Made by a program: the position numbers and the translations under genes
In this document: positions 17,599 to 64,000 of the stretch, piece after piece
How the letters are laid out: each line of letters starts with the position of its first letter
Numbering within the stretch: position 1 is the stretch's first letter
The notes under the pieces: model-generated
Told to the model about the DNA's origin: nothing
The model's input: the letters and a program-made list of their open reading frames with translations, nothing else
Database searches by the model: none
Origin: Reclinomonas americana ATCC 50394
Lineage: Eukaryota
Assembly: GCA_048213135.1 (NCBI GenBank)
Contig: PS015059.1
Span: 44,231 to 108,230, forward strand
DNA length: 64,000 nt
Direction of reading: 5' to 3'

Positions 17599-17874
17599 AT
17601 CTGCTTGTTTAATGTTGTAGTTTCGGTAGTAGCTATCCCCTCCTCCCAGTGCGTCAAATCGGTCCCTCCCCGGCGCTCGCCTCTCATCAACCCATCCGCC
17701 ACTGTGCGCGGGAGCAGTGCCGACTAGGTACAACGGACACCGCCACCCACTGTGGCAGCAATGGGGAAAGAGAGCGGCGAGGCCAGCAGGAAACACGACC
17801 AATTAAACACCAGAGAATCAGAGTACTCGGAGGTGCAACCTCCGGATAACGTGCTCGCCCAATATAGCGCCTGT

Positions 17875-18920: not shown

Positions 18921-19112
18921 ACNNNNNNNNNNNNNNNNNNNNNNNNNNNNNNNNNNNNNNNNNNNNNNNNNNNNNNNNNNNNNNNNNNNNNNNNNNNNNN
19001 NNNNNNNNNNNNNNNNNNNNNNNNNNNNNNNNNNNNNNNNNNNNNNNNNNNNNNNNNNNNNNNNNNNNNNNNNNNNNNNNNNNNNNNNNNNNNNNNNNNN
19101 NNNNNNNNNNNN

Positions 19113-19629
19113 GAGAGAGAGAGAGAGCAAGAGAGTGAGAGAAGTAAGTGTCTCAGAGTGTCTCAGAGTAACAGAGGGAGGAAGATAGAAAGAGAGAGTG
19201 AGTGAGAATGCCTGTCGCCCTTCTTCTGCATGCATGAGTGTGCGCGTGTGTGAGTGAGAGAAAAGAGAGAGAGAGAGAGGAGAGAATGTGTCACAGTCAA
19301 TGTAAGAACGACACAGGAATGCAATGAGCGAGCGCGTGTCTGTGAGAGAAGGAGAGAGAGAGAGGGCGAGAGTGAGAGTAAGACTGCACCCTTCTTCCCT
19401 TCACAGCATGCGTCAGTGAGCGAGTGAGAATGCAAGAGAATGTCTCTCTCATTCCTCTTTCTCTCTCATTCTCTCTCTTTACATAAGACACGCACGCACA
19501 CAGAGACACACGCACTAACCATTGTTGTATCGTCGCTCACAGCTGATGCGTCGCCTGCACAAAGAGAGAGAAGAGAGAGAGAGAAGAGAGAGGACATGGT
19601 CAACAAAACACACACACACACACACATAC

Positions 19630-19660
<31 letters not shown>

Positions 19661-19774
19661 AGGGAGAGAGAAGGGAGAGAAAGAGAAGGGAGGGAGAGAG
19701 AGGAGGGAGGGAGAGTGGGAGGGAAGGGGAGAGAGAAAGAGAGAGAGAGAGAGACAGAGAGAGAAAGAGAGAGA

Positions 19775-19831
<57 letters not shown>

Positions 19832-19976
19832 GAGGGGGAGGGAAGAGAGACAGGAGAGAGAGACAGAGAGAGAGAGAGAGAGGCAAATGCAAGAGTAAGA
19901 GAGAAAGAAAGCAATGAGAGGAGAGAGAGGAGAGAGAGAGAAAGAAAGCAAGCATGAGAGAGAGAGAGAGAGAGAC
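19113..19976. repeat. Long (GA)n/purine-rich low-complexity tract
   Basis: Nearly continuous GA/GGA repeats; the RERE/SLSL ORFs here are artefacts. Confidence 0.9.
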
Positions 19977-20240
19977 GGTGCTCACACGTACAGATGTGTC
20001 ATGGCAGTGGCCAGGACGTTGTACATCGCGTCAGTCCATTCCCAGGCACCAAAGGCACTCATACTCAACGAGAATCGCGCTCGTCTGAGTGGACGTGCTC
20101 TTGTGCGTCTGCGCGCGCGTCTGGTTCTCTCTCTCTCTCCCTCTCTCTCTCTCTCCCTCCCTCCCTCTCTCTCCCTCTCTCCCTCTCTCCCTCTCTCNNN
20201 NNNNNNNNNNNNNNNNNNNNNNNNNNNNNNNNNNNNNNNN

Positions 20241-22643
20241 ATTACTCGAATGAAACGGGATCTACAACTGGCTCAGATGCGGCGTGCGGAGGTGGAGGCG
20301 ACTCGCGATCGGCTGCGGGTTCAGCTAGAAGCGACCCAAGCTGAGCTGGAGACGACCCGCGATCGACTGCAGACTGAGCGTGAGATGGCCCGCCAGTGCG
20401 CCATCGATAAGGAGTTGGCCCAGCGACAGCTTCTTACGGTGGAGACGAACCGCAATTGGCTGCGAAATGAGCTGAAGACGACCCGCGCTCGGCTGGAGAC
20501 TGAGCTGGAGACGACCCGAGAACGGATGAAGGAGTCCCGCGATCGGCTGGAGACTGAGCTGGAGACGACCCGAGAACGGATGAAGGAGTCCCGCGATCGG
20601 CTGGAGACTGAGCTGGAGACGACCCGCGATCGGCTGGAGACTGAGCTGAAGGAGTCCCACGATCTGCTGCAACGTGAGCGGGAGGCAGCCCAGCAACAGT
20701 GTGTGAGCACCCTGGAGAACGCCCGGGAGCAGCATGCGATCGACGTGGCTCGCCTACGACACGAAGCCAACGTAATCCAGCAGTCGCTCCAACAAGAGAA
20801 CGCTGTCCTCCGTGATGCCCTCAGCGCTGCCGAGGCTGCCCACTGGGCGGCCCTTTCCTTCGCCACCGCTCATGGCCGGTCGGCGCAAAAGGTATGAAAC
20901 TTTACAAGTGCTGTCGTGCGTCGCTGCACACATGCTGCGCATGCCGCCGACCCTGACGCTGACTTCGCTTGTCTTGGCTCTCAGGCCTTTGCCAGATTCG
21001 GACTCAGGTGCGCCGAGAGAAGAAAGTCAACAGTGGCGATGAAGACACGGCAAGCTTGCCACATTCTCAGCCTGCAGGTGCATCCTTGGTGATCCCTCGT
21101 GCTATATGCAATGCGCGACAATAAGCACTGATTTTCGACAACCTGCATTCATGTGTTGTGTAATGCAGAAGTGTGTCCAGTACGAGCTTCGTGGGCGGTG
21201 TTGCCAGCTTGCGATCGAGAAGTTTGGTCATCCAGTGCACTGCTGTCGAAACTGCATCATGCTGCCGTACAAATGGCATGCTCAGCATGATAGACACGAA
21301 ATCTGTGTCACGGTAAGTGGCACAACTGGAGGTACCATGCGTCTCGGCGTCGCTCATTCTTCTCTCACGGGTGACCACATATACTTAGGCCGACGGCTAT
21401 CTGTTCTGCATCGATCGCGATACCACATCTGCGCCTGGCTACCTCACGTGGGGGCACGCAGTGGCGGCCGGAGTGGTGGCCAACGTTGACGTGCCCGACG
21501 CATTTACTCTGAACACTCGCATTCGTGTGTTCGATCGCGAGACATGTGCCCGGAAAGATACTGTGCTCCTGCCGCACATGAGTCTTCTTCTGCGGCATGC
21601 TGTCGCCACGGATACTCGAGCACGTGACGCCGGCGGCGTTCTGCCCGCCGAGATCCTCCATCATCTCAGGGTTGCCGCCGCCGCCGAGGAATCAGAGTCG
21701 ATTGGCGACGATGAAGTTGTGTGTCCCTGTATCATGACTAGCTTTTGTTCGGCGACTGACGATGTGACGACGTCACAGCTAAAAACTCTACGTTCTGTGC
21801 AACGTCGTGCTGTCAAACCTGCTCGCGAGGGCGATGATGCCGAGACGGACAAGGACGGTGACGATGCCGATGAAGAGGATGGTGACGAGCACGACAATCC
21901 CAGTGACTTCTCGTCGGAGGGCCCGTCTGAGTCTGCGCCCTCAGCTGGCGATGGTTCGAATTCGCGGTCGGCTCCGTCTCGCACGGATGCCACGAATTCG
22001 CGGTCGGAACTGACTGGCTCCGGTAACGAGCAGTCGACGCCGACTGCAGCGGCCGGTGGACACGGCGAAGGCGATGCCCACGGTGGCGAAGAAGCTGTCA
22101 CGCTTGTCGAGAAACTTGTCACGGCGATTGGCAAGCTCACCACAACTGATTTTGTGGAGTCGTGGCGGCAAGAGACCATGGTGGCTCACGAACCCGGGCC
22201 CGCCGCCGTCGACTTGTTTGCTGATACTGTCCACGGACCCACCGCGGCCATCCATGACGGCCACGACGACGCTGCTTCGGAAGATAATGACTTCCTGTCG
22301 GACGTGCGGATGACGAGCTATGATGGCAGCTTTGATGAGGAATTCGAAGACGCTGACGAGGAAGACGAGCAGCAGCAGCTGGGGGAGGAGGACGACAAGG
22401 AGGAGGAGGAGGAGGAGGAGGACGAGGAAGAGGAGGAGGTAGTGGAGGGAGCCATCGATAACGCAGTTGAGGAGGCGGAGGTGCACGATGTTGACGACGC
22501 CGTCGTCATGCGAAGCACTGCTGGAGATTGTGGTGGCGTTTCGCCGGCGAATGGTGCGGAGGCCGCAGCGAGTGCTGGCTTGATTGAGCCTGCTGAGCGA
22601 GTGCCGGAGTCAGCAGCTGGTGACCGTGAGATCAAGCGATCAC
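20241..22643 (+). CDS. 'Gene Y' copy 1: repetitive coiled coil + HNH-type endonuclease-like domain + acidic tail (both ends in gaps)
   Basis: ELETTRDRL repeats, then spliced AFARFGLRCA...QACHILSLQ|KCVQYELRGRCC...RNCIMLPYKWHAQHDRHEICVT|ADGYLF...LLPHMSLLLRHAV, then a D/E-rich tail. The AxHI...NxxxL...HxxxD...LP...LLxH pattern is that of HNH_2-type nucleases. Confidence 0.65.
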
Positions 22644-23870: not shown

Positions 23871-23902
23871 TGCATAATGTGCTCGCCCAATCTAGCGCCC
23901 GC

Positions 23903-26345
23903 TCAAGGCGACGTAGGCGTGCCGGCATCGGAGCTCGGCGAAAGCAGCAGGGAGCTGTTCGGCGACATGGCGCTGCCGCTGTGGTGCGGCCACAAGTTCA
24001 ACGCCTTCAGTTCGCGCACAAAGGCTGCGTGCACCAGCACACCAACGCGTGAGACTCACACACACAGCAAGGACAGGACGAGACATGCAAGCTCAACCTT
24101 CACGACATCTCTTCTCGGCCTTGGGTCCCTCGACGCGCACGTGCAGGCCGGTGAGGAGATCAACAATCTCCGTCAGTGTGTCACTGCGCACGGTGTGAGG
24201 AGTGCAGGGGGGGATGGAGAGGGAGAGAGGAGGGAGAGGAAGGAGAGAGAGAGGGAAGGAGGAAGGGAGGGAGAGGAGAGAAAAGAGGAAGAAGAGGGAG
24301 AGGAGAGAAACGAGGGAGAAGAGGGGGAGAGGAGAGAAATGAGGGAGTAGAGGGAGGGAGGGAGGGAGAAAGTGCAGAGGGAGAGGGGTGTGGAAAAGGC
24401 GAGGACGTCACGCACAGAAAGAATGTGTGCGTGTGCGTGCGTGTGAGAAAGACGACAAACCTGTGGCGCAATATTTGCACAAAGCGTCCGACGAGACGCG
24501 TTGTCTGACTGCCGAGTGCCAGCTGCGCAGCATTGAGTTGCGCCACATCCCTTACAGTGACCTGCAGCGGACAGTGAGGTGGAGGACGAGGGATGGGCGG
24601 GTCGATCAGCGCTACGCAACGTTCTCAAAGTACTCCTTTTCGATCTTGTACTTGTCGGCAAAGAGCGACAGAGCGTCCCGATCAATCACCGACTCGGCTG
24701 CGCGTCGCCCAACAAACAACACACACGAAACACACGTGTCAGTCGTCGTCCACACGACACACATGCGCCTGTCAACTCTGCGCAACATTGAATAGCCTCC
24801 TGAATGTCAGCGGCGACCTCCGCACGTGTTCGTGGCGCTCGCACCAGCTGCGTGACCGCTGCACGTGTGGAACGTGAGCCACCGGCCGCTGCCGCCTGCA
24901 CACTCGCTTCGACTTGTTCCAGCCGCTTCTCGGCCGCTTCCATAACCNNNNNNNNNNNNNNNNNNNNNNNNNNNNNNNNNNNNNNNNNNNNNNNNNNNNN
25001 NNNNNNNNNNNNNNNNNNNNNNNNNNNNNNNNNNNNNNNNNNNNNNNNNNNNNNNNNNNNNNNNNNNNNNNNNNNNNNNNNNNNNNNNNNNNNNNNNNNN
25101 NNNNNNNNNNNNNNNNNNNNNNNNNNNNNNNNNNNNNNNNNNNNNNNNNNNNNNNNNNNNNNNNNNNNNNNNNNNNNNNNNNNNNNNNNNNNNNNNNNNN
25201 NNNNNNNNNNNNNNNNNNNNNNNNNNNNNNNNNNNNNNNNNNNNNNNNNNNNNNNNNNNNNNNNNNNNNNNNNNNNNNNNNNNNNNNNNNNNNNNNNNNN
25301 NNNNNNNNNNNNNNNNNNNNNNNNNNNNNNNNNNNNNNNNNNNNNNNNNNNNNNNNNNNNNNNNNNNNNNNNNNNNNNNNNNNNNNNNNNNNNNNNNNNN
25401 NNNNNNNNNNNNNNNNNNNNNNNNNNNNNNNNNNNNNNNNNNNNNNNNNNNNNNNNNNNNNNNNNNNNNNNNNNNNNNNNNNNNNNNNNNNNNNNNNNNN
25501 NNNNNNNNNNNNNNNNNNNNNNNNNNNNNNNNNNNNNNNNNNNNNNNNNNNNNNNNNNNNNNNNNNNNNNNNNNNNNNNNNNNNNNNNNNNNNNNNNNNN
25601 NNNNNNNNNNNNNNNNNNNNNNNNNNNNNNNNNNNNNNNNNNNNNNNNNNNNNNNNNNNNNNNNNNNNNNNNNNNNNNNNNNNNNNNNNNNNNNNNNNNN
25701 NNNNNNNNNNNNNNNNNNNNNNNNNNNNNNNNNNNNNNNNNNNNNNNNNNNNNNNNNNNNNNNNNNNNNNNNNNNNNNNNNNNNTCCGCATACGCAACGT
25801 TCGTTCTCGAGGTACTCCTTCAGTGTCTTGAACTTGGATTCCTCCTCGTACGCCATTTGACACAATGAACACGACTGCGAAGTTTATGAACAGGACACGC
25901 GGAATCATCTCAACTCGGGAGCTGGTGTTTCTGCAGGCAGCACTGGAGTAGTGCGAAGGGGTGTGCCTTACGTGTGTCGTGATGCAATGAGCGGCACGAC
26001 GTCGATTGAGATGTCAAGTCACGCGCGCGACGTTCCCCGAAGGTCACTTTACATAAGCGCGTTTCCGGCCGTTTCTTTCTTTGTCGCTGCTGGTGAGATG
26101 AGGTGAGTGCATCGGACGCTTTCATGGTCACATGGATGCATGCCTGACAGTCCGAGATGCAGCACGGCATCAGCGCCACCCGCAGGTACCGGTGGCATGC
26201 CCACCAGTTCAAAGATGCATATGAAGAAGGCGTCAGTGGCCCTTGCGGTTGCTCTCGCAAGTGCTTCGGCCCCGTCGCATGCTGCCTCTGGCTCCTCAAG
26301 CTCTGCACCAGCGCCAGCGGCAAGGTGCGTCTGCGCCCCCTGTAG
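23903..26345 (-). CDS. Hypothetical protein 'gene X', copy 2
   Basis: Same 3' exons and stop (23903) as copy 1; extra upstream exon SCSLCQMAYEEESKFKTLKEYLENE at ~25795-25873; 5' end uncertain. Confidence 0.6.
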
Positions 26346-26401
26346 AGTTGCAGACTTTGAGTCGACCGAGTGCGCGTGGGAGAGAGAGAGAGACGGGGAG
26401 G

Positions 26402-26441
<40 letters not shown>

Positions 26442-26486
26442 GAGAGGAGGAGANNNNNNNNNNNNNNNNNNNNCTCTCCTCCCCTC

Positions 26487-26533
<47 letters not shown>

Positions 26534-26603
26534 CACCCTCTTTTAGTGGTCAAGCTTATCATCTGTTGCGGGTCTGATGACTGACTTTGTTGTTCATTCG
26601 CAG

Positions 26604-29300
26604 CCTTGGCGTTGCCCCATCGGTAGCCGCTGCTGCGAACGCACCTCAAGATGATGTTGCTCGGTTGGCGGCCGCGGACGCACCCGTTCAAGCGCAGCTG
26701 CAGCGCTTGCTGGAACCGGAGGATCAAGAACTGGCTCAGATGCGGCGTGCGGAGGAGGAGGCGACTCGGCTGCGGGTTCAGCTAGAAGCGACCAAGACTG
26801 ACCAAAAGACGACCCGCGATCGACTGCAGACTGAGCGTGAGATGGCCCGCCAGTGTGCCATCGATCAGGAGTTGGCCCAGCTACAGCTTCTCAGGCTGCG
26901 AACTGAGCTGGAGACGACCCAGACTGAGCTTGAGGAGACCCAGGCTGAGCTGGAGAAGACCCGCGATCGGCTGCGGACTGAGCGTGAGATGGCCCGCCAG
27001 TGTGCCATCGATCAGGAGTTGGCCCAGCAACAGCTTCTCAGGCTGCGAACTGAGCTGGAGACGACCCAGACTGAGCTGGAGAAGACCCGCGATCGGCTGC
27101 GGACTGAGCGTGAGATAGTCCGACAGTGTGCGAGCGAACTGGAGTTGGTCCAGCAACAGCATCTTACGGCGGAGATGGCCCGCAATAGGCTGCGAAGTGA
27201 GCTGGAGACGACCCAGACTGAGCTGGAGAAGACCCAGGCTGAGCTGGAGAAGACCCGCGATCGGCTGCGGACTGAGCGTGAGATAGCCCGGCAGTGTGCG
27301 AGCGAACTGGAGTTGGTCCAGCAACAGCATCTTACGGCGGAGACGACCCGCAATAGGCTGCGAAATGAGTTGAAGACGACCCGCGATCGGCTGGAGACTG
27401 AGTTGGAGACGACCCAGACTGAGCTGGAGACGACCCGCGATCGACTGCGGACTGAGCGTGAGATGGCCCGCCAGTGTGCCATCGATAAGGAGTTGGCCCA
27501 GCAACAGCTTCTTACGGCGGAGACGACCCGTAATAGGCTGCGAAATGAGTTGAAGACGACCCGCGATCGGCTGGAGACTGAGTTGGAGACGACCCAGACT
27601 GAGCTGGAGAAGACCCGCGATCGACTGCGGACTGAGCTGGAGATGGCCAAGCAGCGTGCGGGCGAACTGAATGAGGCTCTGCAGATTCGTGCGGAGCTGG
27701 AGACAGCCAACGATTGGCTGCGGGCTGAGTTGCAAGCGCGTGCACTCGTTCTGGAGATGGACCAGGAGCAGCATGCGATCGATGTGGCTCGCTTACGACA
27801 CGAGGCCAACGTAAGGCAGCAGTCGCTCCAACAAGAGAACGCTGACCTCCGTGATACCCTCAGCGCTGCCGAGGCTGCCCACTTGGCGACCCTTTCCTTC
27901 GCCACCGCTCGCGCACCTGCAGCTCAGCAGGTTTGGCTCAACGTGCACTCTTGTTGCTGAGCGCGGGCGCCGACCTACTGACCGTCATATTTTTTGCTTT
28001 CTGTCAGATATTTACCGCCGGCGGACTTTCTTGCTCTCGCGATGCGGGCTCAACTCTGGTGCGCCATGTGGATGGACTGGAAGCTGTACACATTGTCAGC
28101 CTTAAGGTGCATCTTTGATGATCCCTCGTGCCGTAATGCGCGACAACAAGCACTGACCTCCGAACGGCATGGCGGCGCATTTGTCGTGTATTGCAGGAGT
28201 GTGTCCAGTACAAGCTTCGTGAGCGGTGCTGCCAGCTTGCGATTGACAAGACTGGCCATCCGGTGTACTGTTGCCGTAATTGCATCATGCTTCCGCGGAC
28301 GTGGCGTCAGCAGTTTGAAGCTCACAAAATCTGTGTCACGGTATGCAACCAGGAACATCACGACTGTCATCACACATGTTTTCCTCACTTGGTTGGTAAT
28401 TTGCTGCAGGCTGATGGGTTTCTTTTCCGCACCAGTCCACGGCGTACCTACCTCACGTGGGCACACGCAGTGCTGGCCGGGGTGGTGGCCCAAGTGCCCG
28501 ACGCATTTGCTCACCGTCCGCGCACTCGCGTTCGGGTGTTTAATCGCGTGGAATGCACCAGAGAGGATACTGTGCTCCTGCCGCACATGAGTCTTCTTCT
28601 GCAGCACGCTGTCGCCACGGATTCTCGAGCATGTCGCACCGGCCGTGTCGACAACGCCGTCCCGGAGGGTTTGCTTACTGCACTGAGAGCTGCTGTTGCC
28701 GAGGAGACGCCGACAAACGAGAACCAAGTTGTGTAATCTTGTAGCGCATGGATGTCACCCGTCGACACAATCCTTCTCTCATATTTCTCGTGCAGGTACG
28801 AGCGCTGCGAGACTTGCTCGGTGGTCAGAGTTCAGCTTGCATTAATATGAGCGAGGAAGCCAGCGCCGTCACGCTTGTCGAGAAACAAGTCAGGAAGATA
28901 CGCAAGCTCAACACGACTGCTTTTGTGGAGTCGTGGCGGCAAGAGACCGTGGTGGCTCACGAACCCGGGCCCGCCGCCATCGACTTGATTGCTGATACCA
29001 TCCACGGACCCACCGTGGCCAGCCATGACGGCCACGACGACGTAGTAGCGGAGGATTATGACATCCTGTCAGAAATTCGCTTGATGAGCTATCAAGATCT
29101 AGAAGACGCTGACGATGAGGAGGGTGAGGAAGAGGAGGAGAAGGGAGCCATCGACAACGCAGTTGAGGAGGCGGAGGTGCACGATGTTGACGACGCCGTC
29201 GTCATGCGAAGCACTGCTGGAGACTGTGGTGGCGTTTCGCCGGCGAATGGTGCGGAGGCCGCAGCGAGTGCTGGCTTGATTGAGCCTGAGCCAGCAGCCA
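26604..29300 (+). CDS. 'Gene Y' copy 2: expanded coiled-coil repeats + HNH-like domain (last His replaced by Arg) + acidic tail
   Basis: ORF 26587-27960 of ELETTQT/RDRLRTERE repeats (180-nt period visible, 27361 vs 27541); spliced IFTAGGLSCS...LEAVHIVSLK|ECVQYKLRERCC...RNCIMLPRTWRQQFEAHKICVT|ADGFLF...LLPHMSLLLQHAV. Same intron positions as copy 1. Confidence 0.65.
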
Positions 29301-37417: not shown

Positions 37418-38110
37418 ATGCAGATCTTCGTCAAGACCCTCACCGGCAAGACCATCACTCTCGACGCTGAGCCGACCACCACCGTCGAGGCCTTCAAGGA
37501 GCTCATCCGCAACAAGGAGGGCATCCCCGCCGACCAGCAGCGCCTGATCTACGCCGGCAAGCAGCTGGACGACGCCCGCACTCTCGGCGACTACAACATC
37601 ACCAAGGAGGCCACCATTCACCTGGTGCTCCGTCTGCGCGGTGGCATGCAGATTTTTGTCAAGACCCTCACCGGCAAGACCATCACCCTCGACGCCGAGC
37701 CGACCACCACCGTCGAGGCCTTCAAGGAGCTCATCCGCAACAAGGAGGGCATTCCAGCCGACCAGCAGCGCCTGATCTACGCCGGCAAGCAGCTGGACGA
37801 CGCACGCACACTCGGCGACTACAACATCACCAAGGAGGCCACCATTCACCTGGTGCTCCGTCTGCGCGGTGGCATGCAGATCTTCGTCAAGACCCTGACC
37901 GGCAAGACCATCACCCTCGACGCTGAGCCGACCACCACCGTTGAGGCCTTCAAGGAGCTCATCCGCAACAAGGAGGGCATCCCCGCCGACCAGCAACGCC
38001 TGATCTACGCCGGCAAGCAGCTGGACGACGCCCGCACACTCGGCGACTACAACATCACCAAGGAGGCCACCATTCACTTGGTGCTCCGTCTGCGCGGCGG
38101 CCGCTGCTGA
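37418..38110 (+). CDS. Polyubiquitin-like precursor: three identical, strongly divergent ubiquitin units plus RC tail; intronless
   Basis: 3 x 228-nt units [76 protein letters not shown]; units differ only at synonymous sites; strong C/G-ending codon bias. Confidence 0.95.
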
Positions 38111-42410: not shown

Positions 42411-43805
42411 CTACTGACTGTCGTCACCGGCCGCTTCACCCTCCTTGTCCAAGCCGTACTTTTCTCTCACCGCCGCCAACTCCTCCTGCCGCTTCTTCAC
42501 GTCGAGTCGTTGTTGCATCTTTTGTTGTTGATAGTATAGCACAATCAGGTATCGGTCCAGGACGTTGAAACCGTTCAAGTGATCCAGCGCCTGCTTGGCA
42601 TCGAAAATGTCCTCGAAGACGACAAAGGCGGTGCCGCGGGTGTCCTTCTCGCAGCCACTGGTGAAGGGGAGGGTCAAGGGAGAGCAGGATGACGATGAGC
42701 GATGTGATGAACGAGAGACAGCAAGAAGAATGAGAAGAACAGAGAGTCAGCAAGAAGAACGAAAGGAGGATGGGTGACGATACGAAGAAGAGTGAGATGC
42801 TTGCTGCTTGCATCACCAACGATGAAGGAAGAGACAGCACGAGCAATTGAGTCAAACAACTGCAGAGAGTCGGAGGGTGGGTGACGATACGAAGAAGAGT
42901 AGATGCTTGCTGCTTGCATCACCAACGATGAAGGAAGAGACAGCACGAGCAGTGGAGTCAAACAACTGCAGAGAGTCGGCAAGAAGAACGAAAGGAGGAT
43001 GGGTGACGATACGAAGAAGACTAAGATGCTTGCTGCATGCATCAACAACAATGAAGGAAGAGACAGCACGAGCAATGGAGACAAACAACTGCAGAGAGTC
43101 AGCAAGAAGAACGAAAGGAGGATGGGTGACGATACGAAGAAGAGTGAGATGCTTGCTGCATGCATCACCAACGATGAAGGAAGAGACAGCACGAGCAATT
43201 GAGTCAAACAACTGCAGACTATCAGCAAGAAGAACGAATGCTGGGTTCGCAGCATGCACCACCAACGATGAAGGAAGAGACAGCAAGAGAAGTGGAGTCC
43301 AACGATTGCAGAGAGTCAGCAAGAAGAACGAAAGGAGGATGGGTGACGATACGAAGAAGAGTGAGATGCTTGCTGCATGCATCACCAACGATGAAGGAAG
43401 AGACAGCAAGAGCAGTAGAGAGTCGGCAAGAAGAAAAGATGGATGGGCGACGATACGAAGAAGAGTGAGATGCTTGCTGCATGCATCACCGACGATGAAG
43501 GATAGCGTGGTTGTGGAAATGAGCGAGAGACTAAGAAGGTGGATCAGCAAGCGACAGCAAGATGGATGTGTCCCCTCTCATTTCCTCTTCTCCTCCCCCT
43601 TATGCGCAACAGTCGAATCTGCCTAATGGCCCCAAAGCGCCCGAAAATGTCATACATCTCCTCCGCCTTGATGTTGTACGGCAAGTTCCTGTGTGACACA
43701 CACACACAGAAAAAATTGAGTGTCTCGTGCAATGCAGACACAGCATGCACAGCAACACACACCGAACGTAGAGAATGCGAGAGCACTCCGGTGGCAACCG
43801 CGTCT
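42411..43805 (-). CDS. SF3B6: Splicing factor 3B subunit 6 (p14), RRM; first exon not located
   Basis: [82 protein letters not shown]. Confidence 0.95.
42711..43500. repeat. Intronic minisatellite, ~123-bp unit, ~7 partly truncated copies, in the last intron of SF3B6
   Basis: GCAAGAAGAACGAAAGGAGGATGGGTGACGATACGAAGAAGAGTGAGATGCTTGCTGC recurs at 42751, 42979, 43102 and 43319, with variants at ~42875, 43225 and 43426. Confidence 0.9.
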
Positions 43806-44629: not shown

Positions 44630-47377
44630 GTCTCAACGAGTGACGAGGTGTTCCGCGACCCGAGTATGCCGATCGAGGACCGCGTGCGCGACCTGATTGC
44701 GCGCTTGTCTCTGGAGGAGAAGGTCTCGCAAATGGGTCACGAGGCCTTGGCGATTGAGCGACTGGTGTGCTGCTGCTGCTGCTGCTGCTGTTGATCGTTC
44801 GTTGTCGACCACTGCTGTTGATGGTCTGCGCTGTGTAGGGCATTCCGCCGTATGTGTACTGGAATGAGGCGTTGCATGGGGTGGCGAGGGCGGGAACGGC
44901 CACGGTGTTTCCTCAGGTTTGTCTCTGTGTTCCCCACTGGTGAGTGCAAACGTCGCTGATTAATGCGTAGGCGATTGGTCTGGCGGCCATGTGGGATACG
45001 GCGTTCATGAGGAGTGTGGCCGAGGCCATCTCGGACGAGGCGCGCGCCAAGTATCATGAGGCGTCGGAGAGGCAAAAGGACTATGGGCACTACAAGGGTG
45101 AGCCGTGTGCACGCCCATGTGTGCGTGTGTGGCACTCATTCGTCGCGTCGTGCTGTGGCAGGTCTCACGTTTTGGGTGGGTATCAGCTGGCCTCACCGCT
45201 CCCTTCCCCCTCTTGTCCCTCACTCCCTCCACAGTCTCCCAACATCAACATCTTCCGCGATCCGCGCTGGGGTCGCGGACAGGAGACCTACGGCGAGGAC
45301 CCATTCCTGACATCGCGCATGGCCGTGGCCTTTATTCGTGGTCTGCAAGAGATTCCTCACCACCACCGACGCAGCAGTGAGCCGCATACGCTGCTAAAGA
45401 CCGCCGCCTGTGCCAAGCACTTTGCTGTGCACTCGGGACCGGAGGCCTCGCGCCACCGATTCAACGCGGAGGTGTCGATGCGGGACTTGCGCGACACGTA
45501 CTTGCCGGCGTTTGCCGCCAGCGTGCGAGAGGCGCGTGTCGAGTCGGTCATGTGTGCCTACAATCGGGTGAATGGCGAGCCGGCGTGCGCCAGCCAGACG
45601 CTGCTCGGCAAGATTCTGCGCGAGGAGTGGGAATTCGACGGGCACGTGGTCTCTGATGTGCGAACCCGTGACATGTGCCGCTCCCTCCCTGTCTCTCCCT
45701 TCTCACTCCTCGCTGCACAGTGCTGGTCGCTGCTGGACCTGTTCGACAAGAAATGCCACGGAGTGGTGGACACGGAGGAGGAGGCCGCGGCGCTGGCGGT
45801 GAAGAACGGCTGCGATCTGAACTGCGGCCACACCTTCCGCCGGCTGGTGGCCGCCGTGAAGCAGGGTCTCGTGGACGAGGCCGTCGTGGACCGTGCCGTC
45901 GGCCGTCTGCTCACCACACGCTTCCGATTGGGCATGTTTGATCCGCCGGAGCGACTGCCGACGCAAGTGCGTCTGCCGCTGGACGTGGTCGACTCGAACG
46001 AGTTTGCCGACCGGGCACTGAATGCGGCGCGGCGCTCCTTGGTCCTGCTGAAGAACACCAACGGCTTCCTGCCGCTCAACGCCAACTCGGTGCGCCAGGT
46101 GGCCGTCATTGGCCCCAACGCCCACAATGCCGAGGTGCTGGTCGGCAACTACGCGGGCCAGCCGTCGCGCGACGTCACCTTCCTGGAGGGTCTGCGCGCG
46201 CGTCTGGGCGTGGCACGTGTGCGGTTCGCGCAGGGCTGTCGCGTGTTCAAGGAGAAGAAAGTTGGTGAGTGTGGGTGTGATGACGGGAAAGGGCGGGGAT
46301 CGTCGTTGTGACTCACACCTACACGTGCACAGACACCGGCTTTGACAACATTAGTGAGGTAAGAGTCGCATGCTTTGGTGCACGGCGTGAGGTGCCGCTC
46401 AGTCTTTGTTGCGGTGGCAGGCGGTGGCGATTGCGCAGCGGTCGGATGTGGCGATCCTCTTCCTTGGTCTGAATGCGAGTGTGGAGGGCGAGGGTTGGTC
46501 ATATTGTTTTGACTCGTGCGTCAAGCCACTCCCTGACATGCTGTGTTGTGGTGATGCAGGCGATGGCGAGACGGACGCCGAGACCGATGCGTCGCTGTCG
46601 GGCGACAAGCTGCATTTGAATCTGCCGGGCCGGCAACAGGAGCTGCTGGAGCGCGTGCATGCCACGGGCACACCGGTGGTGTTGGTGCTGGTCTCCGGCA
46701 GCCCGTTGTCGGTGACATGGGCGCACGAGTCCACCATTCCGTCGATTGTGCAGGCCTGGTATCCGGGTCAGGCCGCGGGCACGGCGCTCACCGAGCTCTT
46801 GTTTGGCGACGTGAGCCCGGCCGGCCGTTTGCCCATCACCTTCCCGCGCTCGGTCGACGACTTGCCGCCGTTTGACGAGTACTCGATGGTCAACCGCACG
46901 TACCGCTACAGCTCGGTGGAGCCGCTGTACCCGTTCGGCTACGGCCTGTCGTACACTCGGTTCGAGTATCGCGACGTGGAGCTGACGACGACGCGGGCCA
47001 CGGTCGACGAGGTGGCTCACCGACCACTGCCCGTGCGCTTCACCGTCTTCAACGCCGGCGAGCGCCAGAGCGACGAGGTCGCGCAAATGTACGTGCGCCG
47101 CGAGGGCGGTCGCGCCAACTTTGAGCTGCGCGGCTTCGTGCGCCTGCAACGCCTCATGCCCGGCGAGTCGCGGTCGGCCCGCTTCGAGCTCTCCGCCCGC
47201 CACCTGGCCACCATCACCGACGACGGCGAGTGCCTCCTCCTCCCCGGCACCTACTCCATCTTTGTCGGCGGCTCACAGCCCGACCAGCGCAGCGTGTCGT
47301 TGATGAGTGGTGTCGAACCCATAGAGATCACCCTCTCCATCACTGGCGACGACCCAGTGGAGGTTCCCTACGCGTAA
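44630..47377 (+). CDS. Glycoside hydrolase family 3 (beta-xylosidase/beta-glucosidase type) with C-terminal Fn3-like domain; start exon probably in gap
   Basis: FRDPSMPIEDRVRDLIARLSLEEK, WNEALHG, ATVFPQ|AIGLAA, GLTFW|SPNINIFRDPRWGRGQETYGEDP, KHFA, MCAYNRVNGEPAC, VVSD|CW (nucleophile Asp), QAWYPGQ, PAGRLPITF, YPFGYGLSYT. Confidence 0.96.
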
Positions 47378-55946: not shown

Positions 55947-57009
55947 ATGCAAGACGACGCACTGCGCCTGCGCAAGATCGCCTTTGTGTCTTCGCTCGAT
56001 GGCACCACACCATGGAACGTGATGCTCACCATCTGCGTTCTCCCAGTGCGTCAGTCGTTCTCTGTTATTCATGCACCCACAATGTCATCGCTCACCTCCG
56101 CTGCGCGCAGACAGTGGAGCACGCACACGCACTGCTGGCACCGCTCATTCTGCGCTATGCCACCCCCGCCAGCTGGCGACGAGTCGTCTCTGCGGCACTC
56201 GACATTGCCTTGAAAGTGTGGCTGCCGCTCTTCTTCCTTACCGCCGGCTACGAGTGGTGGAAACGAGCAGAGTTCAGTGTGCCGCTGATGGTGGCGGTGC
56301 ATGCAGCTGCATGGATGATGATGACGAAGAACAAGGAGAAGGAGGAGAAGAAGGACGTGATGGGTCGACGACTGGGGTTTCTCAGTGCAACTCGCGCCAC
56401 GCTGATGATTGCCACTTGTTGCGTGCGAGCGAGCGTGTTGTGCTCTCCTCTCTCCTCACTCCTCACCATTTATCATCCTGTCGTGCACAGGCATCTCGAT
56501 CTTGGCGGTCGACTTTCCTGTGTTTGCTCGGGAGCTGGCCAAGACGGAGACGTACGGCTCGTCGCTGATGGATGTCGGTGTGGGAGTGTTTATCGTGTAT
56601 CTCGGCCTGGTGTCCAAGTCGACGGCAGTGGAACCGGTGCATGTTCCGCTGCGTGCACGACTGCGCCGTGTGCTGTTCGGCTCGGGTCCGCTGCTGTCGA
56701 TTGCGGTGGTGCGGCTGGTGGTCACTCGCCTGCTCAACTACCAGGAGCACGTCAGTGAGTATGGCGTGCACTGGAACTTTTTCGTGACCCTGGCCGTGAT
56801 GCTGGCCGTCGACTCGCTGGTCACCGTGCGCTCTCCCAAGGCGGCACTGATGGGTGCCGTGGGCATGCTGGTCGTGCATGAGGTGGTGGTGCTGCGGCTG
56901 CTCGGTGGCGCGGCGTACATTCTCGACGATTCGGTGCGCCACGCCAACCTGCTGGCGCAGAACAAGGAGGGCGTGCTGAGCCTCACGGGTGGGTGGCACG
57001 AAAGTAGGA

Positions 57010-57071
<62 letters not shown>

Positions 57072-57468
57072 GGTAGGTAGGTACGGTAGGTCGGTACGGT
57101 ACGGTACGTACGTACGGTACGGTCGGTACGGTACGGTACGGTACGTAACGAACGTAACGTACGTACGTACTTACGTTNNNNNNNNNNNNNNNNNNNNNNN
57201 NNNNNNNNNNNNNNNNNNNNNNNNNNNNNNNNNNNNNNNNNNNNNNNNNNNNNNNNNNNNNNNNNNNNNNNNNNNNNNNNNNNNNNNNNNNNNNNNNNNN
57301 NNNNNNNNNNNNNNNNNNNNNNNNNNNNNNNNNNNNNNNNNNNNNNNNNNNNNNNNNNNNNNNNNNNNNNNNNNNNNNNNNNNNNNNNNNNNNNNNNNNN
57401 NTACGAGTACGTACGTACGTAGACGTACGTACGAGAGTAGTACGACGTACGTACGTACGAGACGAGAG

Positions 57469-57511
<43 letters not shown>

Positions 57512-58242
57512 TGAGTGCGCGAGTACTGACTGCGTGACGTGCAGGATACACATCTCTGTATCTGTTTGGCGTGTGGACGGGCATGCTGGCCAACCGCACC
57601 TATTGTGCCTCACCCAAACGGCCATCCATGGTATGTGTGTGCCAGCTGTCTTGTCGTGTTTTGTCGACAGCAGTTTCTCATGTGCACCTTTGGCACAGCG
57701 CCCGCGCGTGGCCGCTGCTGTTGCTGCAGTGGTCCTGATTGTGAGCTTTGTGCTGGCGCACGTGTTGCAGCCGTCGCGTCGTCTGGTGTGTAGATTGCTT
57801 CCAGTGTGCAGACGAACCTGTCTTGGGTGCGCTAACTCGCACGAACAGCTCAATGCTGGCTACATTTGCCTGGTCATGGCGCTGGTGGCGACGCAGATGC
57901 TGATGCTCGCGTGGCCGGCGGGAGCGCGGCACGAGGAGAGTGCTCTTGTGCGCGCACTCAACGATAACGCCATGCTGGTGTTCCTTTTTGTTGCGTGGTG
58001 TGCGGTTTGTGCGTTGATGATCATCATCAATCCTGAAACCCCCCGTCATGCAGGCCAACTTGACGACGGGTGTGGCCAACTTCTCGCTGGTCACCATCGA
58101 CACCGAAGGTCCACTGGCCTACTTTGCTCTGCTGCTGCACTGTACGGCGTTTGCTGTGTTTGCACTGACACTGCGGTCGCGTGGCATCTCGTTTTCGATG
58201 CGCTCCCTCGTCAAGAAGGACGACGGCCTGAAGACCGAATGA
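55947..58242 (+). CDS. PIGW: GPI inositol acyltransferase PIG-W / Gwt1
   Basis: KIAFVSSLDGTT, IAT|CISILAVDFPVFARELAKTETYGSSLMDVGVG, YQEHVSEYGVHWNFFVTL, QNKEGVLSL, PSRRL|LNAGY, NAMLVFLF|ANLTTGVAN. Confidence 0.95.
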
Positions 58243-58301: not shown

Positions 58302-61300
58302 TCATGTGGGTGGCACTGGTTCCGGAGGCACCAGGTCCTCCTGCAGAACGAGTTGAAGTGTGTCGGAGACCTGCTCGAACGTTGGTCGCGCAGACGGGTT
58401 GTCCGACCAGCAGCTCTCAATCAGTCTGTAATAAAGCAGAGTATTGATTGAGTACATGTTGTTCTTTGTTTTTTGTTTGTTGTGTCAAACCTCTTCAGTC
58501 GGTCTGGCAGGTCTGCGGCGAGCTCGGGTCGCCGGTTGTAGGTACTAACTTGATACATGATGGCTGCAAAGGAGACGAGAAAAGAGTGAGAGACAAACAC
58601 ACACACACACACACCGGTTGTGTTGCGTGTCAAGAACCACTCACCAAAATCGTTGGTGATGGTGGAGAATGGTCTCTTGCCCGAGATTATTTCGTTCATC
58701 ATCACTCCAAAACTGTACACGTCCACGCTCTTGTTGTACGCATCGTCGCCACCTGAAACAAAAGACACGGCCGTCAACAAGGATTCGCAACACGGGAGAG
58801 GTACAGCAGAGCACGCAACGCAGAATCTCGGGCGACATATACGCAGTGGTTCCTGTGGCACGAGTAGTGATGAATGCACGAAAACGCGGAGAGAACAACC
58901 AACACACACGCTGCGTACCTCCAAAAGTGGTGAGCTGAGAGCCTCCTCTCGACCCGACCACCTTGGCAAGCCCAAAATCTGCACGATGAGGTGGAGGAAA
59001 TGAGAGTGGTACGATGGTAAAGGAAAATAGGGGGAGAGTGCCATCGCACCGGCAATCTTGGTCGTCGGTATGCTGCCAGCAGAGACGCACAGCACATTGG
59101 CAGGCTTCAAGTCTGCGCACACACTCCAGACTGAGTCACAAACGTTCAAATCACAGGCTACCGCCATCATTATTGCGCACACACACCTCGATGCACAACA
59201 CCAATGACGTGCCTGGAGAGAGAGGAGAAAGAAGTGAGGGACGCTGTGTGAAAATGAGAACACGGAGTGTTGTCGACGCAACAAGAACGCCATGGTCGAA
59301 CTGATTTGCTGGCAAATAGTGAGCCGATCCTGCAGCGTGGCAGCGAGACCGGCAGGCGATTTGAGCCATCCGTGCTGCGCGGACGTGCACAGAATCAGAA
59401 GGTGGGCGCACATAGTCTGTGCAAAGTGCGGTGGACGCAACGAGATCACCACCGGGAACGTACTCGGTGACAATGTAGCAGACGCCGGAGGTTTCGGTGT
59501 TTGCGCCGACAAAATTGACCACGCCCGGATGTCTCGCTCGACTCAGCGCCAGCAACTCGCCCGACACGTCCGTCGATTCACTCGTAATCAATTCCTTGAT
59601 GGCCACTGGCGCTCCAAACAGGCGACCCTCGAATACCTTGCCGAATCCGCCACTGCAAGCGAGAGGACGCGGTGTGTTCAGGTCGCTAAAAAGATGACGC
59701 TGGTGACGACGGCACACGCAACGAGCCGAGCACACGACCGAGTTTCAAGTTATCCATGTTGATGCGCACAAACTCCACCGACGGCTTTGCCTCCATGGCT
59801 GGTACGACGCTGCGTCGTCGATGGTTCTCTTGCGAGGCCATGGTGCGCAAGTAATCCAAGTCGGCGAGCTCTGTACGTGATCAGTGAGCACGAGTGGCAA
59901 GGGCGGGAGAGAGGGGGGGGGAGGGAGAGAGAGAGATCCCACGCACCAGCAACGGCGCTTGCCACTGGCGCCGACACCTCGAGTGCCACCGTGCCTGCCA
60001 CACTCGGCTTGTTGCCATCTGCGACGGTGTAAGGTGACGGCCGCGATGTCGACTAAGAGAAGCGTACTCACCGCCAACACCAATAGTGTCCAAACCCTTC
60101 TTAATGTAGTCCTTGACATAGTCAATCACCTCAAAACACACGGAACCATACTGCAGTGCCTCCTCATTGTCGGTGGCCATGTACACACACTCCACCCACG
60201 GCGCACGCGCACTGCTGCTCAGCCGCTCACACATGGCCGGCGGAATGAATCTACGAGATCGCACTTGTCAGCAGGCGAAGAGAAGGAAGAGGAGTCAAGT
60301 ATGAGCAGCAAAACGCACTTGCCACTCTCGGTGGCTTCGCGGGTACCGACCAGGAGGATGAAAGAGTCGGGAAATCTGCGCAAAACATGCAAGAGGTGAG
60401 CAACACGAAATGCAAATAGAGCGCAAGGATATCGGTGCAGACGCACGTTGTCTGCAAGTGGTTGACCTCTCGCTTCAGCGAATTCAGCGACGCAGTGTCT
60501 GGCAACGCTGATAAGTACGAAGTGACGAGCATGGGTGACATTCATACACTGTCTCGGGCACACCTGACATGCCAAAGCACAGGCAGATCAAGTCGACCGA
60601 CGTCAAGTGCGCCACCTCGCTGGTGAACACGCCAAACAGAACCGGATCTCGCGACTCCAACGCCCCACCACAATCGTACAAGTGCAACAGCGTCGGTTCT
60701 TCGTCAATGTCGATCAGCAGCTGAGTACAGCGCATCGGCGTGAGTGAGGAATGGCGAGAGACAGTGACAAAAGCACACGACGACGCACATGCACGCGTCG
60801 ATTATCGGGCGCCACTGTGGGCGATCCGTGTTCATCGAATGTGAGCGGAAGCGGATCCTCGGCCGTGGCCGCCAGCATGCGCGTGGTGGCCGCCTGATGG
60901 TTGCCAAAGAAGAAGACTCGGGCGTGCTGACGCACACCAGGACGCGACAAGTCACCCTGCGAGTCGTCGCTCATCATGCTCGATTCCATCAACGACACCG
61001 AGTTGAGGGAGCTGGCCGACACTGAACGATTGAAGAACAGCGTCGGTGGTGAGCCCGGTGTCGAACTGCCGTCCTGTTGAGCAGAAGCAGTCGTGGACGA
61101 CACCGTGGTGGTGGTCGTCCAGGGAGACCGCGGTGCGGCAGCGGCGGTGACAGCGGTGGTGGTGATGGGTGCAGACCCCGAGGATGTCTGTGTCGCGAGT
61201 GCGGGAGCGGAAGCTGCTGCCGACGGCGCACTTGCAGCTGACTCGCGACTGCCAAAGCCCGCAATGCTGTTCTCGCCTACATTTTTTCAGCACACCGAGT

Positions 61301-61629
61301 CAGAATGCGGCTGGCGAAGCGAAAGGACGGGGCGGAACACGCAACAGAGGTATTCGTACAGTGAATCGCTGAGCATGGAACGCAGAACATCGGGTTGGGC
61401 CTTGCTTCGCCGCAGTTGGCGCACCACATCCGACGTCCAGTCGAGCACGTGTGGCATGTTGACCACCATGCCTGACAGAGGGGAAAAGTTTGTGAGAGGG
61501 GGGAAGAGGCAGGTGAGAAGAGAAGAGAGAGGCGTAACATTGTGGGGTTCCGCGGACGGTGATGGATGAGTTGTATGGTCGAACGGCGACGACCCACTGG
61601 GGAGGAGTCAAAGGGTGAGTGAAGCCGAA

Positions 61630-61679
<50 letters not shown>

Positions 61680-62278
61680 GACGCGTCGTGTGTACGTCTA
61701 CGTTACGTCGTAGTTCGTCGTCTCACTACTACGTTACTACTACTCTACGTCGTCCGTCGTCTCTTCTTCTTNNNNNNNNNNNNNNNNNNNNTGCTGTACC
61801 GTACATCCGCCTTCGGCCGTACAGCAGAGAGAGAGAGAGAGAGAGAGAGAGAGCAGCCGTCTGTTATGCACTTGTCAGTTTGTCGCTCACACTCTTAGCT
61901 AATCACTCGGCCTGACTCTCTCTTTCTATTTCTCTTCCTGACTCGTTAGTCAAACGCTCATACGGCCTGTCGCCTTCCGATCATTATGCCTCATTCACGA
62001 CTCACTAATCTTTCTTTCCCTCCCTCTATTCCGTCCCTCTTTCTCTCTCTCTCTCTCTTCTCGCTTTCTCTTTCTGACTCAAATGCCAGTCAAACGCTCG
62101 CATGGTAGTCGCAAACGACCACCCAAACCCAGCCACGGTGCACTCCCCCAACTCTCTTCTCTCTAATTTCTTTCTCTCTTTCTGACTCAGGCGACAGTCA
62201 AACGCTCGCATGGAGTTCGCATACGACCACCCAAACCCAGCCACGGTGCACTCCTCCACCTCTCTCTCCTCTCTAATT

Positions 62279-62322
<44 letters not shown>

Positions 62323-63442
62323 GTCAGTCAAACGCTCACGACTACCGATCTCCGACCACCCAAAGCCAGCCATTCTTATCTTTCCCTCCCTCGTCCCCCT
62401 CCTCTCTCTCTCTCCCTCCCTCCCTCCCTCTCTCCCAACTCACCGGCAGCGACCACAATGTGAGACCCTGCATACCACACGCAGTCAGCAGCAGCGAGAA
62501 CACGCACAAGCACCTATCGACAACGCACCTTGACGACACTGATGCTGGTCACATACAGCACCTCCAACGGCAAGTCACGGAAAGCTCCACTCAGATAGCT
62601 CTGCGACGCGACAGCACGCGTGAGACAGGCAGCCGCACAAGCAACGCACGGACGACGCCTTTCCGCACATGCACGTGCTTGCGAACGTCCTTGAATTCGC
62701 GAAAACGATGCTGCCTCGACTCCCACTGATCCACGGCCACCCACTCCGCCACATCCGCATAGTCCGGGTCGTGGAGAATCACCTCCAGCATCTCCACGCG
62801 CAACCTGGCCGGCAGTGCAAACCGACCCGCACGACTGTGTGATCGCACGCACGAGTCAGAGCTCCCGATCATCGATCATCACCGTCTCGAGTGTACGCGC
62901 GCAACGATTGCACATAGGCATCGCAGCTGGGTGAAATCAGACCGCCAACCACAAGCTTGCCTTCCTTGCTCTCCAGGTGTCGCTTGGCCACACGAAACAT
63001 CTGCGTTGCGCGCGGGCGTGTGAGTTGATTGACTGATAATCCCTCCCTGTCTCTCTCTCTCTCTTCACTCACTCACCTCCAAAATCGTGGCATTGGGCGG
63101 GGAAAACGATCCCGTGGTCAACAAGATGACGGGTTTCGCGCGTGACTGCGCCTTGCCGTCTTCGGCCGCCACTCGCCACTCGTTCTCCAACTCACTCAGC
63201 ACTCCCTGCAGCTTGCTCATGTTGTGGCCTTCAGTCGCAAGTGCCTCACTGGATCTGTGTGTGCGAGAGAGAGCAGGTGAGTGAGTGCGAGGGATCAATG
63301 AGCGTGAGTGTGTGTGTGCTTGTGTGATGATGACTCACAGTGTGCGAAGAGTGCGTGCGCCGCTCATTGTTGTTGCTGTGGACGAGTTTGTGGAAGGGGG
63401 AGAGGCGAGGGAAGAGGACCCTGCATGGCCGGGCACCGACAT
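58302..63442 (-). CDS. Multidomain protein kinase: degenerate NMNAT/NadD-like domain + degenerate Ras-like domain + TKL-type kinase
   Basis: In-frame GT-AG splicing from MSVPGHAG(63442) through VILLTTGSFSPP, VVGGLISPSCDAY, VDQWESRQ, WVVAVRP, DWTSDVVR..LSDSLYEYL|CEN, RVFFFGNHQAATT, LYDCGG, FILLVGTRE and APWVEC to LG|SGGFGKV, VAIK, HR|DLKPAN, DFG, TTAYMSPE, DVYSFG, CWSDNPSARPTF; stop at 58302. One junction near 60510-60590 is unresolved. Confidence 0.75.
61947..62372. repeat. Degenerate ~110-140 bp intronic tandem repeats separated by (CT)n
   Basis: AGTCAAACGCTC...CGACCACCCAAA(C/G)CCAGCCA at ~62088, 62195 and 62325, partial at ~61948. Confidence 0.8.
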
Positions 63443-63768: not shown

Positions 63769-64000
63769 TCACCTCTCGCCATCCGCAGCCGGCCACCGCC
63801 GCTCAATCGCCCGCACCACCTCGCGCACCATGTCGTCCACCGGAACCTCCAGCACATCCACCGCCACTGCATTCTCCTCCTGCTCATCCGGCTCCTCCAG
63901 CGTCGCAAACTGACTCGCCACCAGTGTCGCCGGCATAAAGTGTCCACGCCGCTCCGTCATGCGCCGCTCAATGAGCTCCCGTGATGCGCGCAGGTACACA
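63769..64000 (-). CDS. IDNK: Gluconokinase (GntK/IdnK family), C-terminal part; start beyond window
   Basis: VYLRASRELIERRMTERRGHFMPATLVASQFATLEEP: the RxGHFMPxxLxxSQFxTLEEP signature. Confidence 0.9.
   Translation of the reverse strand, partial: VYLRASRELIERRMTERRGHFMPATLVASQFATLEEPDEQEENAVAVDVLEVPVDDMVREVVRAIERRWPAADGER

Follow-up and report, generated by a model that had tools for sequence, protein, structure and literature searches.

Does a single gene on the minus strand of a 64,000-nucleotide (nt) stretch of the Reclinomonas americana ATCC 50394 genome (contig PS015059.1, positions 44,231 to 108,230; this whole stretch is referred to as the window) encode an NMNAT-like domain, a Ras-like domain and a protein kinase within one polypeptide? 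The reading favoured here, with a probability of about 0.68, is that this locus of a GC-rich and very intron-dense eukaryote, the coordinates of which are collected in Table 1, is one gene for a protein of approximately 920 residues, in which a TKL-type Ser/Thr kinase, predicted to be active, is placed behind two degenerate nucleotide-binding folds. The same succession of domains, from an NMNAT-like domain through an Ala/Ser/Thr linker to a Ras-like domain and a kinase, was proposed in an initial annotation of the DNA and is upheld.

The gene model was assembled from exon coordinates on the minus-strand DNA between 57500 and 64000 together with the listed open reading frames. Once the 24 exons are joined, the reading frame is stop-free over 920 codons and contains every motif string quoted in the initial annotation (including VVAVRP, DWTSDVVR, LYEYLCEN, LLVGTRE and WVEC). 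All 23 introns are of the GT..AG type, with the acceptor CAG in 21 and TAG in two of them, while the donor hexamers GTGAGT, GTGCGT and GTTGCG recur five, four and five times, respectively. The lengths of 22 introns fall between 53 and 84 nt, intron 6 alone being long; this intron and intron 8, previously placed at 62445-61598 and 61345-61276, agree with the new model within 1–2 bases. Homology collinear with the model spans junctions 2/3 and 3/4 (NMNAT1 profile), 9/10 to 12/13 (hhalign, Ras) and 15/16 to 19/20 (kinase relatives). Outside searches of Pfam and the PDB used single exons, while whole domains were compared as the spliced model with reference profiles, with shuffled sequences and cross-profile comparisons as controls.

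The NMNAT-like domain and the linker behind it

Residues 75–181 of the spliced protein match positions 8–101 of an NMNAT1 profile with 40.9 bits (E 7.3e-15), and this match crosses two splice junctions. When residues 61–300 are taken alone, the score is 44.7 bits, which is attained by none of the 2000 shuffled sequences (maximum 6.8 bits). The comparison with the NMNAT1 alignment is rated at 97.8% by hhalign (E 7.9e-13; 38% identity across 93 columns), while the cross-control of this domain against the Ras alignment is rated at 0.8%. The profile comprises 78 full-length vertebrate NMNAT1 proteins of 270–295 residues, and the set goes back to an exon (L280) which retrieved at least 120 vertebrate proteins among the matches listed, PF01467 being recognised on 117 of 120. 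This exon and a second one (L283) are genuine animal NMNAT exons from metagenome contigs scanned for the pattern W..VD.WES.Q, where the seven stretches obtained are these two exons, two chance frames and three occurrences of the motif without an open frame; the same scan of viral contigs yields six stretches, none of which is a real NMNAT. Exon 4 (53 residues), which aligns to NMNAT1 residues 77–101, finds five PDB matches at E ≤ 10, headed by three entries for human NMNAT1 (1kqn, 1gzu and 1kku; E 0.65–1.0) and one for NMNAT3 (1nup; E 1.7), each of them marginal. As the NMNAT family was named beforehand in the initial annotation, the search space for exon 4 is a handful of sequences rather than 177,635. 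Searches of exon 4, and likewise of exon 16, against longer proteins scored nothing. As judged from these alignments, the first domain is a descendant of eukaryotic-type NMNAT.

On the NMNAT1 profile, the motif GxFxP is kept as GSFSP at residue 83, ISPxxDAY as ISPSCDAY at residue 116 and VDxWES as DQWES at residue 164. The motif (H/T)xxH, already described as lost in the initial annotation, aligns to N89-A-T-I92, with Asn89 in place of the threonine and Ile92 in place of the catalytic histidine, and it is this second histidine that is required for the synthesis of nicotinamide adenine dinucleotide (NAD) according to the excerpted text of PMC12470169. WxxT, given in the same excerpt as a binding motif for nicotinamide mononucleotide (NMN) present in animals only, reads F-R-E-F and is likewise lost. 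SxxxxR, which is dispensable for NAD synthesis and required for chaperone activity (PMC12470169, in excerpt), reads T-S-D-V-V-R in gapless register, where the arginine is kept and the serine is changed to threonine, in a weak alignment (4.2 bits, attained by 4 of 2000 shuffles). The tryptophan equivalent to W169 is apparently kept in exon 6, as placed by eye. Because the catalytic histidine is lost, NAD-synthesising activity is predicted to be absent, and the domain is very probably an NMNAT by descent and not an enzyme.

The NMNAT-like domain is connected to the Ras-like domain by the linker, which is entered through intron 8, and the donor GTTGCG of this intron recurs in four other introns of the gene. 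Past its acceptor, only the model frame stays stop-free over 124 codons, with one to four stops in each of the other five frames. Under a codon-usage model that contrasts the remaining exons with the introns, the log-likelihood of the linker is +29.9 bits in the model frame vs −42.5 and −8.1 bits in the other forward frames; one reverse frame outscores the model (+51) but has two stops. The GC content at third codon positions is 0.68 in the linker vs 0.69 in the other exons, and the GC content of the introns is 0.54. The junction between the NMNAT-like domain and the linker thus rests on the splice phase, on a donor hexamer that recurs in the gene and on the coding signal found in the linker, and it is quite likely that the parts on its two sides belong to a single gene.

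The Ras-like domain, the connector and the kinase

The second domain was compared with a combined profile of 98 sequences, composed of 28 bacterial Ras-family domains (one phylum; Pfam 60–124 bits) and 70 viral small GTPases; the latter were found via the G3 motif on viral contigs, for the most part metagenome-assembled genomes of giant viruses, and all of them (70/70) match both Pfam Ras and Pfam Roc. This profile scores 7.1 bits with the whole protein and 11.1 bits with residues 396–590 (shuffle maxima 3.0 and 3.6 bits), and a profile of the 70 viral sequences only scores 5.9 and 9.6 bits (maxima 5.3 and 4.7 bits); in each of the four comparisons the score is attained by none of 3000 shuffles. 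The top single reference reaches 11.6 bits (E 8.5e-6). The hhalign match with the Ras alignment is rated at 91.7% (E 7.6e-7) and covers 118 columns at residues 421–546, from strand 2 to strand 6, while the cross-control of this domain against the NMNAT alignment is rated at 2.5%. By these comparisons the middle domain is a Ras-superfamily homologue, with a signal that is weak yet specific and in the expected register.

The motif pattern of this homologue is that of a predicted nucleotide-free pseudoGTPase. The G1 P-loop GxxxxGK[ST] is absent from all 920 residues, its position reading GNHQAATT, and neither GK[ST] nor NKxD is found anywhere in the protein, which bears out the earlier statement that the P-loop is gone. 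The G3 motif DxxG is kept as DCGG at residue 452, falling on the WDTAGQ column, so that its earlier identification as G3 holds. LLVGTREA falls on the G4 strand and motif, where the position of [NT]KxD, absent from the whole protein, is occupied by TREA, and WVEC falls on strand 6, the G5 position of SAK reading (V)ECV. As it has neither the P-loop GK[ST] nor NKxD, the domain would be unable to act as a canonical switch.

The G-like domain is separated from the kinase by a stretch of approximately 72 residues, interrupted by two canonical introns (13 and 14) and free of stops. This spacing could not accommodate a COR domain of the known size, and no Pfam family is recognised on exon 15 (exon 14, of 23 residues, lay outside the scan), in agreement with the initial annotation, to which a COR domain was not evident.

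The kinase carries all the catalytic motifs attributed to it before, and these are found in the spliced frame (Table 1); it is intact as far as every core catalytic motif is concerned, and its activity is predicted. Pfam PK_Tyr_Ser-Thr is recognised on exon 16 (1.9e-8) and exon 22 (9.7e-6), in both cases ahead of Pkinase. The tentative assignment to TKL follows this family ranking, which is seen on both exons and in seven of the eight nearest long relatives.

A HMMER scan of 1.84 billion representative sequences with exon 16 finds 360 proteins at E ≤ 1e-3. The top relative (P0121) is an open frame of 85 residues on a Logan contig of 1457 nt from another organism, sharing 77% identity over residues 658–728, and its alignment ends at the exon 16/17 boundary. 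Another relative (P0133; 139 residues, Logan contig of 2334 nt) shares 55% identity over residues 674–808, is collinear over four junctions of the model until it departs from it at the exon 20/21 boundary; either four of the introns are missing from this relative or its sequence is derived from RNA. The alignment of a third (P0124) spans the exon 15/16 junction. The kinase part of the gene model is therefore supported by relatives in another organism.

All of the eight longest near relatives are kinases of a TKL-like kind, and in most of them kinase domains are arranged in tandem; their accessory domains are guanylate cyclase (two proteins), leucine-rich repeat, the C-terminal domain of 5'-nucleotidase and a periplasmic-binding-protein fold (one each), while neither PF01467 nor Ras is found in any of the eight. 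Among the nearest 150 kinase representatives, many of which are short fragments, profiles at E ≤ 0.01 detect no NMNAT-like or Ras-like domain. As a separate observation, the nearest long kinase relatives (P0122–P0134) mostly have two to four kinase domains, and their domain variety suggests that the TKL kinases of the lineage have diversified very inventively.

Table 1. Features of the three-domain gene, with positions in the window (domain roles as predicted; kinase motifs are located by residue number)
Feature	Coordinates	Strand	Description
Whole gene	63442..58302	minus	24 exons, 23 introns, coding sequence 2763 nt, 920 residues
Start codon	63442-63440	minus	ATG, putative
Exon 1	63339..63442	minus	Low-complexity Ser/Thr/Ala-rich N-terminus, residues 1-34
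Exons 2-8	61346..63254	minus	NMNAT-derived pseudo-enzyme domain (predicted), residues ~75-290
Exons 2-8, single	63254-63077, 63000-62897, 62834-62675, 62600-62529, 62467-62444, 61596-61539, 61471-61346	minus	
Intron 6	61597..62443	minus	847 nt, donor GTGAGT, acceptor CAG, phase 0 to phase 0
Intron 8	61345-61277	minus	69 nt, GTTGCG..TAG, exon 8 to exon 9
Linker, 5' part of exon 9	60919..61276	minus	Ala/Ser/Thr-rich, ~120 residues (276-395)
3' part of exon 9 and exons 10-13	60072..60918	minus	Ras-superfamily-like pseudo-GTPase domain (predicted), residues ~396-584
Exons 10-13, single	60720-60564, 60498-60447, 60375-60319, 60250-60072	minus	
Exons 14-15	59723..60018	minus	Short connector, residues 585-657, into first strand of kinase
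Exons 16-24	58302..59652	minus	TKL-type protein kinase domain, residues 658-920, and stop codon
Kinase motifs			GSGGFGKV 657, VAIK 674, HRDLKPAN 766, DFG 789, SPE 815
Stop codon	58304-58302	minus	

Comparison with known proteins and competing explanations

The protein resembles the ROCO kinases (LRRK2 and the Roco proteins of Dictyostelium) in having a Ras-like G domain N-terminal to a TKL-type kinase within one polypeptide. Unlike them, it has no COR domain, no P-loop GK[ST] and no NKxD, no leucine-rich or ankyrin repeats are found in it, and an NMNAT-like domain is added. Its assignment as a true ROCO protein was rejected, as both COR and the P-loop are missing; what it offers is a Roc-less and COR-less pairing of a G fold with a TKL kinase. 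With the eukaryotic NMNAT1–3 (PF01467) it shares a homologous N-terminal Rossmann core and the retained GSFxP, ISPxxDAY and VDxWES, whereas here this core is followed by a highly divergent C-terminal half, other domains are attached to it, and its catalytic inactivity is predicted.

Kinases with a dead enzyme as their sensor are rare and instructive, GCN2 being the textbook case. In GCN2, control of the kinase lies with a fused domain that is related to a nucleotidyl-transfer enzyme but catalytically inactive (PMC11606652, in excerpt), which is an analogy of mechanism and not of descent. The fold there is that of a class II aminoacyl-tRNA synthetase (HisRS-like) with a known ligand, whereas here it is that of a HIGH-type nucleotidyltransferase, and the kinase group and the domain order also differ. 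The pseudoGTPases pG1 and pG2 of p190RhoGAP and that of AAGAB are, in the excerpted texts of PMC5593906 and PMC12490416, G folds without nucleotide-binding motifs that serve as structural or interaction modules, while the G fold here has a kinase directly behind it and is nucleotide-free only by prediction from its motifs. NMNAT is also joined to other modules in bacterial NadR and in the mouse WldS chimera (PMC7221760 and PMC2654119, in excerpt); there, however, the NMNAT is active and its partners are a small-molecule kinase and a helix-turn-helix domain, or a fragment of Ube4b, with no protein kinase or G domain.

A fusion of NMNAT with a protein kinase was not found in searches of the open-access literature, supplements excluded. 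The combination of NMNAT, Ras and kinase was not found described in that literature or among the 150 nearest kinase relatives (0/150), two narrow checks with which the initial annotation, which knew of no such architecture, agrees. As the nearest kinases already recruit enzyme-like domains, the protein can be regarded as a variation on the multidomain TKL kinases.

If the protein acts as its motifs suggest, the kinase would be its only catalytic part. The pseudo-GTPase may form a fixed, nucleotide-independent docking surface beside the kinase, holding the position that Roc has in ROCO kinases and not working as a switch. The NMNAT-like domain would be a non-catalytic regulatory module, which apparently keeps the W169 equivalent and a TxxxxR variant of SxxxxR and could act by associating with itself or through a ligand or phospho-peptide held in its remnant pocket, while the Ser/Thr-rich linker is a likely target of autophosphorylation.

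Several points weigh against one protein of this composition, beginning with the fact that the mode of action of all three domains is inferred. With single exons, Pfam (ten exons) recognises neither CTP_transf_like nor Ras and only the kinase; phmmer against the PDB finds no match at E ≤ 10 for exons 2 and 3, and only unrelated weak matches, including Atherin, cytochrome c2 and P450, for exons 8, 10 and 13. A search of the ESM Atlas with exon 10 returned no usable match. Two bacterial profiles, one of NadD (29 Bacteroidota sequences and that of E. coli) and one of the 28 Ras-family domains, find no match to the model. The Ras signal is weak (7–11 bits), with an identity of 8% to the first template row in hhalign. 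In the NMNAT-like domain, the C-terminal half can hardly be recognised, as residues 183–300 reach the 4.2 bits given above with a profile of the C-terminal 134 positions of NMNAT1, which places exon 8 weakly, in the correct order, on the helix region of SxxxxR; hmmalign leaves exons 5–7 unplaced against NMNAT1. Since exon 8 is located beyond the long intron, this weak match is the sole homology evidence tying exons 2–4 to it. Approximately 10 expected residues, estimated by eye, seem to be absent around the exon 6/7 junction beside a 20-N assembly gap in intron 6 (61772-61791), where a hidden exon may lie. The donor of intron 3, GTACAC, is unusual and makes this the weakest junction of the model; the sole other GT before an in-frame stop leads to a phase that no acceptor completes.

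The gene model was moreover read from genomic DNA alone, and the locus could instead hold two or three neighbouring same-strand genes, with a stand-alone pseudo-NMNAT ending past exon 8 and a kinase, with or without the Ras-like domain, starting at an internal methionine. When intron 8 is left unspliced, the frame stops after 22 codons, and in-frame methionines follow at approximately residue 375 in the linker and residue 621 in exon 15, which makes separate products conceivable; small intergenic regions also occur here, given the tight spacing, with approximately 60 nt beyond the stop codon and 326 nt ahead of the ATG. This arrangement is nevertheless improbable, as intron 8 is canonical and has a donor hexamer seen four more times in the gene, the 124 codons from its acceptor to the G-like domain are stop-free in the model frame alone with coding-type codon usage and third-position GC content, and the canonical introns 13 and 14 leave less than 150 nt for a terminator and a promoter. 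If the genes were separate, the locus would hold a stand-alone pseudo-NMNAT adjoining a pseudoGTPase-kinase, which is less remarkable. Decay of the whole into a pseudogene, with the degeneration of the N-terminal part reflecting relaxed constraint on a former NMNAT-GTPase-kinase or on captured gene fragments, would fit the absence of catalytic motifs from two of the three domains and the strong divergence of the C-terminal NMNAT half. It is very unlikely, however, with no stop or frameshift over 920 codons and 24 exons, intact splice sites in 23 of 23 introns, all core kinase motifs preserved, and a relative of exon 16 in another organism with 77% identity and the same exon boundary.

A further question concerns what the NMNAT-like domain does in the three-domain protein preferred here. 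In line with the sensing role suggested in the initial annotation, it might be a small-molecule sensor which binds NMN, nicotinic acid mononucleotide (NaMN), NAD or ATP without turnover and sets the kinase activity allosterically. The core of the NMNAT fold is conserved, and GSFSP, ISP..DAY and D.WES are retained, as apparently are the tryptophan equivalent to W169 and the arginine of SxxxxR (motif roles from PMC12470169, in excerpt); the NMNAT mutant H24A keeps its folding and substrate binding (PMC2654119, in excerpt), and GCN2 provides the precedent for a dead homologue of a nucleotidyl-transfer enzyme as the sensor of a kinase (PMC11606652, in excerpt). Against this, neither residue of (H/T)xxH is kept, the NMN site WxxT reads FREF, and the region expected to carry the G-x-D element, by which NMNAT binds ribose, is not alignable. 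A sensor of this kind is doubtful. A broader proposal, in which the NMNAT-derived domain is a receptor of NMN, NaMN, NAD, ATP or a phosphorylated segment, for example of its own linker, and gates the pseudoGTPase-kinase unit, is likewise tentative.

NMNAT is central to NAD synthesis, and its enzyme-dead mutants retain folding, substrate binding and a chaperone role. NMN and NAD are sensed by SARM1. Should the receptor proposal be true, the kinase would directly read out NAD-precursor status from a dead enzyme of NAD synthesis, in parallel to the dead tRNA synthetase of GCN2 and to the sensing by SARM1, via a different fold. If the protein is real, it would be a natural case in which the NMNAT fold is reused outside metabolism and a testable candidate for the sensing of NAD precursors or phospho-proteins by a kinase.

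Locus bounds and other features of the window

Exon 1 is without homology support, and its frame is continuous into exon 2, to which it is joined in frame by intron 1 (84 nt, GTGAGT..CAG); the methionine at residue 47 in exon 2 is an alternative start. On the upstream side, a same-strand open frame ends in a stop codon at 63769-63771, which leaves 326 nt to the ATG. On the opposite strand, a gene for the glycosylphosphatidylinositol-anchor acyltransferase GWT1 (56409-58242, plus strand; Pfam 4e-55), which is broken by a long N-run, is convergent with the kinase gene. The frame taken as its last exon ends at 58242, approximately 60 nt from the stop of the kinase gene, so that the 3' ends of the two genes must nearly touch or overlap. 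The locus is thus bounded on both sides, by the upstream same-strand frame and by the opposite-strand GWT1. Intron 6 is composed of (GA)n/(CT)n runs and of repeated units of approximately 40–100 nt, which flank the 20-N gap on both sides.

Elsewhere in the window, a polyubiquitin-like gene (37418-38107, plus strand; Pfam ubiquitin 2.7e-91, three stretches) has copies that are 96–97% identical at the DNA level and lies directly downstream of an N-run; its repeat unit presumably differs from canonical ubiquitin at many positions. A segmental duplication of approximately 5 kb (17846-22592 vs 23874-29288; 74–98% identity, several N gaps), which includes a coiled-coil gene with internal repeats at 26581-27960, may be genuine or may have arisen in the assembly. 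At 44971-47377 on the plus strand is a glycoside hydrolase family 3 gene with an Fn3-like tail, where the first long open frame is 45–54% identical to bacterial genes; a relative is encoded by 521 of the 532 stretches that match its pattern in prokaryotic genomes. This bacterial likeness could be due to gene transfer or just to conservation of the family. The region 42674-43626 is internally repeated DNA, the copies of which are 79–93% identical, with long open frames on both strands.

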